Source: Pseudomonadota bacterium (GTDB lineage Bacteria; Pseudomonadota; Gammaproteobacteria; Burkholderiales; Burkholderiaceae_C). From it: DNA of 64,000 nucleotides. Shown piece after piece: positions 54,922 to 55,826 of the stretch. The translations under genes were made by a program, and so were the position numbers. Position 1 is the first letter of the stretch; each line of letters begins with the position of its first letter. The DNA is taken from positions 8,080-72,079 of the forward strand of contig JAJZUV010000011.1 of assembly GCA_021848345.1 (NCBI GenBank), read 5' to 3'. Under the pieces are notes generated by a model. It searched no databases. It had not been told where the DNA came from and worked only from the letters and a program-made list of their open reading frames with translations.

Positions 54922-55176
54922 ATGCCAATGCCGTGCTACCTCTCGCTCGAGGGCCAGACCCAGGGAGCCATCCAGGGCTCCAGCAAGGTCCAGGGCCAGG
55001 AAAACAAGATCATGGTCCAGGCCGTGGAACACCTGGTCGACATCCCCAGCAATCCCCAGAACGGCCTGCCGTCCGGAAAGTGCGTGCTGGGCCCGATGAC
55101 CTTGACCAAGGAAGTGGACAAGTCCTCGCCCAAGCTGTTCCAGGCCCTGAGCCAGGGAGAGCAGATGACCAACGTC
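54922..55176 (+). pseudogene. hcp: 5' half of hcp (TssD), truncated after 85 codons
   Basis: CAGGAG RBS; MPMPCYLSLEG..QG.I.G, TKEVDKSSPKLFQAL..GE Hcp motifs, then an abrupt switch to non-Hcp residues (RRASRRRHC) and a stop at 55224. Confidence 0.85.
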
Positions 55177-55826
55177 AGGCGCGCCAGCAGGCGCAGGCAC
55201 TGCAGGCGGCGGGCGCCACCGTGACCATTACCGCGCTGCCCACCGACGTGCAGCCGCCCGGCGCCCCGGGCGTGTACCTGACCCGCCTGAGCATGCGCTG
55301 CGCAAGCGGCCCCTTCGACTCCAGCAACATCAACCTGCCCTTGCAGGAATCCGTCACCTGGAACGCGAACGATTGCGGGGACGTCCGCCTGAGCATGCAC
55401 ATCGGCGACATCGTGCTGCAGCGGGTCTACCCCGGCCCCCTGGGCTTCGCCGACTTCCTGGCCGACTTCCGCAGCGGCTCGCACACCTTCACGCCGCAGG
55501 ACTTCCCCGCACAGGCCGCGAGCCTGCGGAGCCTGGGGGTCCGGGGAATCGTGCTGCACTATCGCTTCGGGGGAGCCGACGCCGTGCTGCGCACGGCCGA
55601 GGCGCTGCGTGCGGCGAACAGCCGCGCCGACCAGGCCGAGCAGACCCTGAAGGCCCTCGGCGAGCGCCAGCAGCTCCTGTTGCGCCAGGCGGCGTCGGCC
55701 CCGGCGCCGGCTTCGGCGCCCGCGTCGGCCGCCTGGCCTGCCGACGGGGCGGGAGCATCGCTGGGTCTGCCTTCCCGCATCACCGAGTGCCCGGACGACC
55801 CGGGAACGCCGCCGAAGCCAACATAG
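55176..55826 (+). pseudogene. 3' fragment (about 216 codons) resembling the C-terminal domain of TssM/IcmF
   Basis: Open frame with host-like codons from the junction: SNINLP..VTWN...CGDVRL, YPGPLGFADFLADFRSG..TF...DFP; recalled pattern of TssM C-termini, no own RBS/ATG at the junction. Confidence 0.6.

Follow-up and report, generated by a model that had tools for sequence, protein, structure and literature searches.

Loss of the T6SS by a large internal deletion is already known. In E. coli ST410 clade B/H24, a 21.0-kb rhsG-tssM deletion inactivated the system, an event attributed to hot-spot recombination, and in E. coli ST131 clade C the lesion is tssM::ISEc12 (both PMC10711316). Experimental evolution of EAEC gave T6SS-inactivating mutations in tssM, tssK, tssF and the promoter (bioRxiv 10.1101/2025.02.08.637259). 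The locus described here, in a stretch of 64,000 nucleotides analysed as a whole (the window), is a further instance, in an environmental bacterium. As in ST410-B, a chromosomal T6SS cluster carries a large internal deletion whose remnants include a tssM fragment, no mobile element stands at the joint, close relatives retain the intact cluster, and the junction can serve as a marker. Unlike ST410-B, the window comes from an environmental, high-G+C proteobacterium of mine-drainage metagenomes, its left breakpoint lies in hcp rather than rhsG, both alleles occur in one sample, and its joint shows 2-nt microhomology only. The ST131-C and EAEC cases are alike in that the T6SS was lost through lesions in tssM or other core genes, but these were insertions or point mutations that left the cluster in place, whereas most of the cluster is gone from the window. 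Core-gene lesions across these systems fit a T6SS that is dispensable or costly under some conditions.

On the left of the cluster, and divergently transcribed from it, stands cysS (51135..52514, reverse strand; an ORF of 459 aa), and a 459-aa tRNA-synt_1e gene holds the syntenic position in the sister-lineage loci L028-L030. Two intact sheath genes follow on the forward strand. The product of tssB (52735..53322), the small subunit, matches PF05591 (VipA) full-length (E=4e-51, profile positions 2-154 of 155) and TIGR03358 at 165.9 bits, above its cut-off. That of tssC (53319..54905), the large subunit, is a 528-aa protein with an Ala/Pro-rich N-terminal extension; it matches PF05943 and PF18945 (VipB and VipB_2) over their full length and TIGR03355 at 645.6 bits. 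On the right, the cluster is bordered by the gene of a TPR-repeat protein (55854..56426, forward strand), 95.3% identical to positions 9682-10254 of L001, a MAG contig introduced below, where it also stands after an intact tssM; in both the window and L001, TPR and peptidyl-prolyl isomerase genes lie downstream of the tssM sequence. An Rfam scan of the whole 64-kb window returned no match, and look-ups of the exact TssB and TPR proteins led to no more than a short contig.

The sheath region also varies in length. TssB and TssC have 195 and 528 aa in the window against 172 and 503 aa in the sister lineage (52735-54905), the surplus consisting of low-complexity sequence rich in Ala, Pro and Glu, at the C-terminus of TssB and close to the N-terminus of TssC. 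Between strains, two tandem-repeat length polymorphisms, both in-frame, were seen in X1, X7, X8 and L027: a 6-nt variation at position 54770, in a CAGGTC (QV) repeat near the tssC 3' end, and a 12-nt variation at position 55690, in an Ala-Pro-Ser repeat within the tssM tail.

The tube gene is broken. What remains of it, hcp' (54922..55177, forward strand, delimited by Pfam, TIGR and tblastn), holds codons 1-85 of a gene that has 162 codons in intact relatives. Its ORF, 54922-55224, encodes 100 aa, with Hcp similarity confined to residues 1-85: PF05638 (T6SS_HCP, E=2.7e-18) aligns residues 6-85 to profile positions 1-79 of 129, TIGR03344 aligns residues 1-85 to positions 1-94 of 167 (90.9 bits, cut-off 58.9), and in tblastn with a 162-aa Hcp homologue residues 1-85 alone align, at 54922-55176. 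C55176 is the third base of codon 85. Beyond ...GEQMTNV, the hcp frame reads out of frame into tssM sequence for 15 unrelated codons, RRASRRRHCRRRAPP (55178..55224, forward strand, from ORF reading), and ends at TGA 55222-55224; full-length Hcp relatives, of 162 aa, continue ...NV TLE(F/Y)(Y/M)RISPK. The gene product thus belongs to the Hcp/TssD family by its match but is not the complete protein of ~160 aa, and the window's hcp is a pseudogene fragment. A metagenome scan with Hcp, used for Hcp length and gene order, yielded relatives at no more than 74% identity.

Another hcp-like sequence was met in run X1, where a 3606-nt contig (depth 12.6 versus 14) shares just 36 nt of hcp (55105-55140) and encodes a different Hcp-like sequence (...GKRIHGPATV...AALTSGEQMK). 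It may represent a second hcp, perhaps of a second T6SS, carried either by the same genome or by a co-resident organism.

From C55176, the other frame stays open through 216 codons and closes at TAG 55824-55826. The earlier note had placed both the end of Hcp similarity and the start of this frame at 55176, and both hold to the base, with Pfam, TIGR03344 and tblastn all stopping at residue 85 and the ORF reading giving exactly 216 codons. A phmmer search of the tail against 1.84 billion representatives gave 490 matches at E<=0.001, 306 of them at E<=1e-10, and the full-length matches (~1150-1300 aa) aligned at their extreme C-terminus; with so many relatives, matched at that position, the frame is more than a chance opening. 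The only sequence that word-index protein searches with the tail brought up was a 139-aa fragment, and RNA was represented by fragmentary contigs only, in runs guessed to be RNA.

The parent gene is found on MAG contig JAKBNS010000179.1 (L001), which came from a scan of genome collections. Its blastn alignment with the window, at 93.8% identity, begins at precisely 55176 (L001 position 9004) and runs to the window end; on L001 it begins in frame with codon 1028 of a tssM gene of 1243 codons. Four lines of evidence identify this parent gene (L001 5923-9654) as tssM: its product matches PF14331, the IcmF-related N-terminal domain (E=9.5e-55); TIGR03348 matches over the N-terminal third; the gene order on L001 is a PAAR-like gene, tssJ, tssK, tssL and then tssM; and a profile of an alignment of 50 family members (A1) matches solved EAEC TssM (6IXH_P, E=3.8e-14; 6HS7_A, E=1.8e-13), with profile positions 412-995 corresponding to EAEC residues 356-962 and the alignment stopping short of the tail. 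By homology, 'tssM (55176..55826, forward strand, from blastn against L001) is the 3' end of a divergent tssM, of which the last 17% (codons 1028-1243, or 216 codons, plus TAG) is kept. The TssM-like character that the earlier note gave to this frame is borne out by the 94% nucleotide identity in register with L001 tssM codons 1028-1243. When L001 TssM was used as a tblastn query, residues 1040-1243 alone were found in the window, which thus lacks a complete tssM with its transmembrane and NTPase regions.

The tail itself resists classification. Pfam, NCBIfam and PDB sequence searches with its 216 aa gave no match; the full-length TssM proteins of L001 and of a second locus, L002, show no match to IcmF_C (PF06744); and L001 TssM scores 223.8 bits against TIGR03348, under the 388 cut-off. 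An AF2 model (pLDDT 92) has a beta-sandwich followed by a long helix, and Foldseek found nothing for it in the PDB below E=0.019. The search of C-terminal TssM/IcmF models by HMM and structure, which the earlier note had named as a check, accordingly came out negative in Pfam, NCBIfam, PDB and Foldseek, because this TssM lineage has a lineage-specific, non-canonical C-terminal domain. Since the tail lacks a direct family match, its identity as tssM rests on the full-length relatives.

Compared with canonical TssM (EAEC Sci1; 6IXH, 6HS7, 4Y7L/M/O), the protein has the same NTPase region at its N-terminus (PF14331, TIGR03348) and the same periplasmic helical region, but the last ~245 positions of the A1 profile, which include the window's 216 codons, fail to align to the canonical domain. 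The C-terminal domain of this lineage, which seems uncharacterised, stands at the position of the canonical one. In EAEC, the canonical TssM C-terminal domain binds TssJ. Across alignment A1, Cys42, Cys67, Asn53 and Trp62 are invariant in the C-terminal domain, and Cys205 is nearly so.

The joint between hcp' and 'tssM is the dinucleotide CA at 55176..55177 (forward strand), as placed by comparison with the intact allele. Support for it was sought among Logan contigs, which are assembled separately (k=31) and speak at the level of contigs rather than raw reads. Four datasets cross it: a 1247-nt contig of X1, a run labelled with a host organism, and a 1426-nt contig of X5, a mine-drainage metagenome, each with 0 mismatches; a contig of X6 that covers 54746-55205 with no mismatch; and L027 (ERR3200796), with an identical joint and the same 100-aa hcp'. 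The joint-crossing contigs have a depth equal to that of their flanks.

The undeleted allele was recovered as well. In X7, a mine metagenome, a 751-nt contig equals the window up to 55177 and then continues as intact hcp for 182 nt (CCCTCGAGTACATGCGC...), and the same continuation (TLEYMRISPK) directly follows 55177 in X7-X10. On the tssM side, an 11,982-nt contig of X7 equals the window from 55176 and reads leftward into tssM (...CAGCTCGGG); beyond the joint it carries tssM and upstream genes (11.5 kb), corresponding to L001 1-9473 at ~93% plus a further 2.5 kb. Intact tssM is also present in X18 and X46, and X6 carries both alleles, the deletion at depth 22.3 and the intact form at 4.2. Independent joints thus go together with an undeleted allele with matching flanks (X7, the minor allele of X6, X18, X46 and L001), as in a genuine deletion allele. 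The deletion is polymorphic in natural populations, even inside one sample, and it is recent, since the flanks are identical between deleted and intact alleles. A 31-mer across 55176 is a ready marker of the deletion allele.

Sequence nearly identical to the window also turns up in runs labelled as several different host organisms (X1-X4, X8-X10, X14, X25-X29, X51-X53), a run set that spans mine-drainage, hot-spring, soil and rhizosphere metagenomes besides. This distribution suggests either a bacterium that is widespread in freshwater or soil, or contamination of sequencing samples.

The intact alleles define the breakpoints. Intact hcp reads ...AACGT CA CCCTCGAG and intact tssM reads ...CAGCTCGGG CA GGCGCGCC, so that CA is common to hcp nucleotides 255-256 and the first two bases of tssM codon 1028. 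These 2 nt are the sole microhomology, in the contexts ...AACGT CA CCCTC... (hcp) and ...CTCGGG CA GGCGCG... (tssM). Around 55176 in the window, we found no transposase-like ORF, insertion sequence, repeat, inverted-repeat pair, target duplication or filler, and the element, terminal inverted repeats and target duplication of an IS- or transposon-mediated deletion are absent from the joint. The absence of IS ends and transposase had been remarked in the earlier note, which also proposed a single large deletion; repeat and ORF inspection agrees with the former, and for the latter one event suffices, the X7 allele matching the window on both sides of the joint with no mismatch.

We consider it very probable that the locus is the scar of a recent, one-step chromosomal deletion in a T6SS cluster that no longer functions. 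The ancestral cluster would have lain between cysS and the TPR-protein gene in the order tssB-tssC-hcp-tssE-tssF-tssG-clpV-(probably vgrG)-DUF2169/pentapeptide-pentapeptide-DUF3540-PAAR-like-tssJ-tssK-tssL-tssM, an order reconstructed from close relatives. At CA, an illegitimate join independent of homology would have fused hcp nucleotide 256 to tssM codon 1028 and removed, in one step, everything from hcp codon 86 through tssM codon 1027. As the join is out of frame, hcp' ends after its 15 nonsense codons and the tssM tail is left with no start of its own; tssB and tssC remain intact, with the tube, baseplate, membrane-complex, ClpV and spike genes gone from the locus. X7 shows at least 11.7 kb of the deleted DNA directly. 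The pieced-together gene order and synteny suggest a total loss of ~17-20 kb, this figure and the presence of vgrG being drawn from relatives that are 88-94% identical.

The gene order itself comes from L004, L028-L038 and L001. The sister lineage (~88% nucleotide identity, with an Hcp 91% identical) has the same cysS-tssB-tssC-hcp arrangement, followed in L029 by tssE-tssF-tssG-clpV. Other sister loci (L032) continue with DUF2169/pentapeptide, pentapeptide, DUF3540 and PAAR-like genes, which align to the left part of L001, just before tssJ, and in the more distant relative L004 vgrG follows clpV. Relatives with a fuller cluster at the cysS locus, for which the earlier note had called, do exist, sharing cysS-tssB-tssC-hcp and carrying extra tss genes after it. 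Some sister loci have deletions of their own. In L038, one joint (981-982), with TG microhomology, connects hcp codon 82 to the 3' end of tssG, its hcp breakpoint lying 9-10 nt from that of the window, and a second (1207-1210) leads from the clpV 5' end to the 3' part of tssK. In L028 and L030-L033, tssF is cut at about nucleotide 1069, and the sequence resumes immediately upstream of the DUF2169 gene (L032 position 2666). From these comparisons, the cysS-linked T6SS cluster has evidently been eroded repeatedly in the clade, by independent deletions.

Little of the machinery is left in the window. With the Tss proteins of L004 and L001 (D, E, F, G, H, I (vgrG), J, K, L and M) as queries, tblastn against the 64-kb window found only hcp 1-85 and the tssM tail, and the 13 core genes (tssA-tssM) of a functional T6SS are not all present there. 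Since tube, baseplate, ClpV, spike and membrane complex are all missing, the locus is predicted, from its gene content and established T6SS biology, to be dead and unable to build a T6SS. The second hcp-like gene in X1 may leave room for another T6SS in the genome. For annotation, the hcp and tssM pieces are best entered as pseudogene fragments and tssB and tssC as orphans, and the locus is best left out of T6SS counts.

A third allele has the same right-hand end. In sample S8 (runs X8, X9 and X10), tail contigs, the longest of 1657 nt, agree with the window at every base from 55176 onward, and to the left of that base they carry at least 1578 nt that are neither hcp nor tssM (ending GCCCCGGACGCGCTCACGATGAGCTACCCA / ...GAGCTACCCA / ...GCTCACGATGAGCTACCCA). 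In this sample hcp is intact past codon 85 and tssM 1-1027 is absent. With up to 8 mismatches allowed, the 30 nt before 55176 in S8 match neither the window nor any locus; as a peptide they have no match either, and against plasmids they gave chance-level matches only. We considered whether the S8 peptide APDALTMSYP might be the 3' strand of hcp (compare MEDLSMTYE in relatives) and rejected this, the S8 contig being without the 5' part of the window's hcp. The shared end may be a coincidence, may mark a hot spot, or may have been left by a shared intermediate, for instance a mobile element. Two rearrangements with one base-exact common end are unexpected under random illegitimate recombination, which hints at a hot spot or shared intermediate, and the presence of the same right-hand breakpoint in a different allele casts some doubt on a simple one-step history.

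Several other accounts of the locus have to be weighed. That two contigs were wrongly joined at a short common sequence was an alternative that the earlier note was unable to exclude, and the mere 2 nt in common at the joint might seem to favour it. It is, however, almost certainly wrong: the separately assembled contigs of X1, X5, X6 and ERR3200796 all span the joint at flank depth, and unless reads cross the joint, no de Bruijn join can arise from an overlap of 2 nt. The joint is real DNA, with artefact excluded as far as contig-level data allow. We also regard it as very improbable that the frame after the joint is no remnant but an intact gene in its own right, or else one fused to hcp by programmed frameshifting. 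Such a gene could draw on the open frame of 216 codons (297 if counted from a GTG inside hcp), on the high confidence with which AF2 folds it and on the short proteins among the phmmer matches, but these last may be gene fragments from short contigs. Further, neither a start codon nor a ribosome-binding site is present around 55176, gene callers cut the region into ORFs of 100, 46 and 139 aa, the frame runs co-linear with the last part of a tssM of 1243 codons at 94% identity, and full-length relatives have the tail sequence at their C-terminus.

In a third alternative history, a mobile element or site-specific recombination site once lay at tssM codon 1028, nested deletions ran leftward from it (reaching hcp codon 85 in the window allele and stopping elsewhere in the S8 allele), and the element was later cleanly lost. 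In its favour, S8 joins other DNA at exactly 55176 and is without tssM 1-1027, and the S8 DNA ends ...GAGCTACCCA, with CA-3' as in many transposon termini. Against this, the window has no element, terminal repeat, target duplication or filler; the S8 sequence adjacent to the joint matches nothing in the window or loci, nor significantly in plasmids; the intact alleles in X7, X6, X18, X46 and L001 show no insertion at this point; and for an element to vanish cleanly once a deletion has formed beside it takes an uncommon path of two or three steps. We judge this history to be quite unlikely. The broader proposition that tssM codon 1028 (55176) is a recurrent breakpoint, whether as a hot spot or as a former insertion site of a mobile element, is speculative and in our view rather doubtful. 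If it were true, then together with at least three further sister-lineage deletions (one of the L028 type and two in L038) the cysS-linked cluster would be a natural system of repeated weapon loss, possibly mechanistically directed and taking place within co-occurring populations. A one-step deletion at the CA dinucleotide remains our preferred reading of the window.

Taken alone, such a scar is routine genome decay, chiefly useful for annotation. For population biology it offers more, since alleles with and without the deletion, identical in their flanks, are found across related samples and even together in one mine-drainage sample. The locus is thereby a natural setting in which to study how cells come to discard contact-dependent weapons, and why, and whether those that have also lost the PAAR-like and DUF2169 accessory genes, with any effector-immunity genes there, can coexist with their armed kin.
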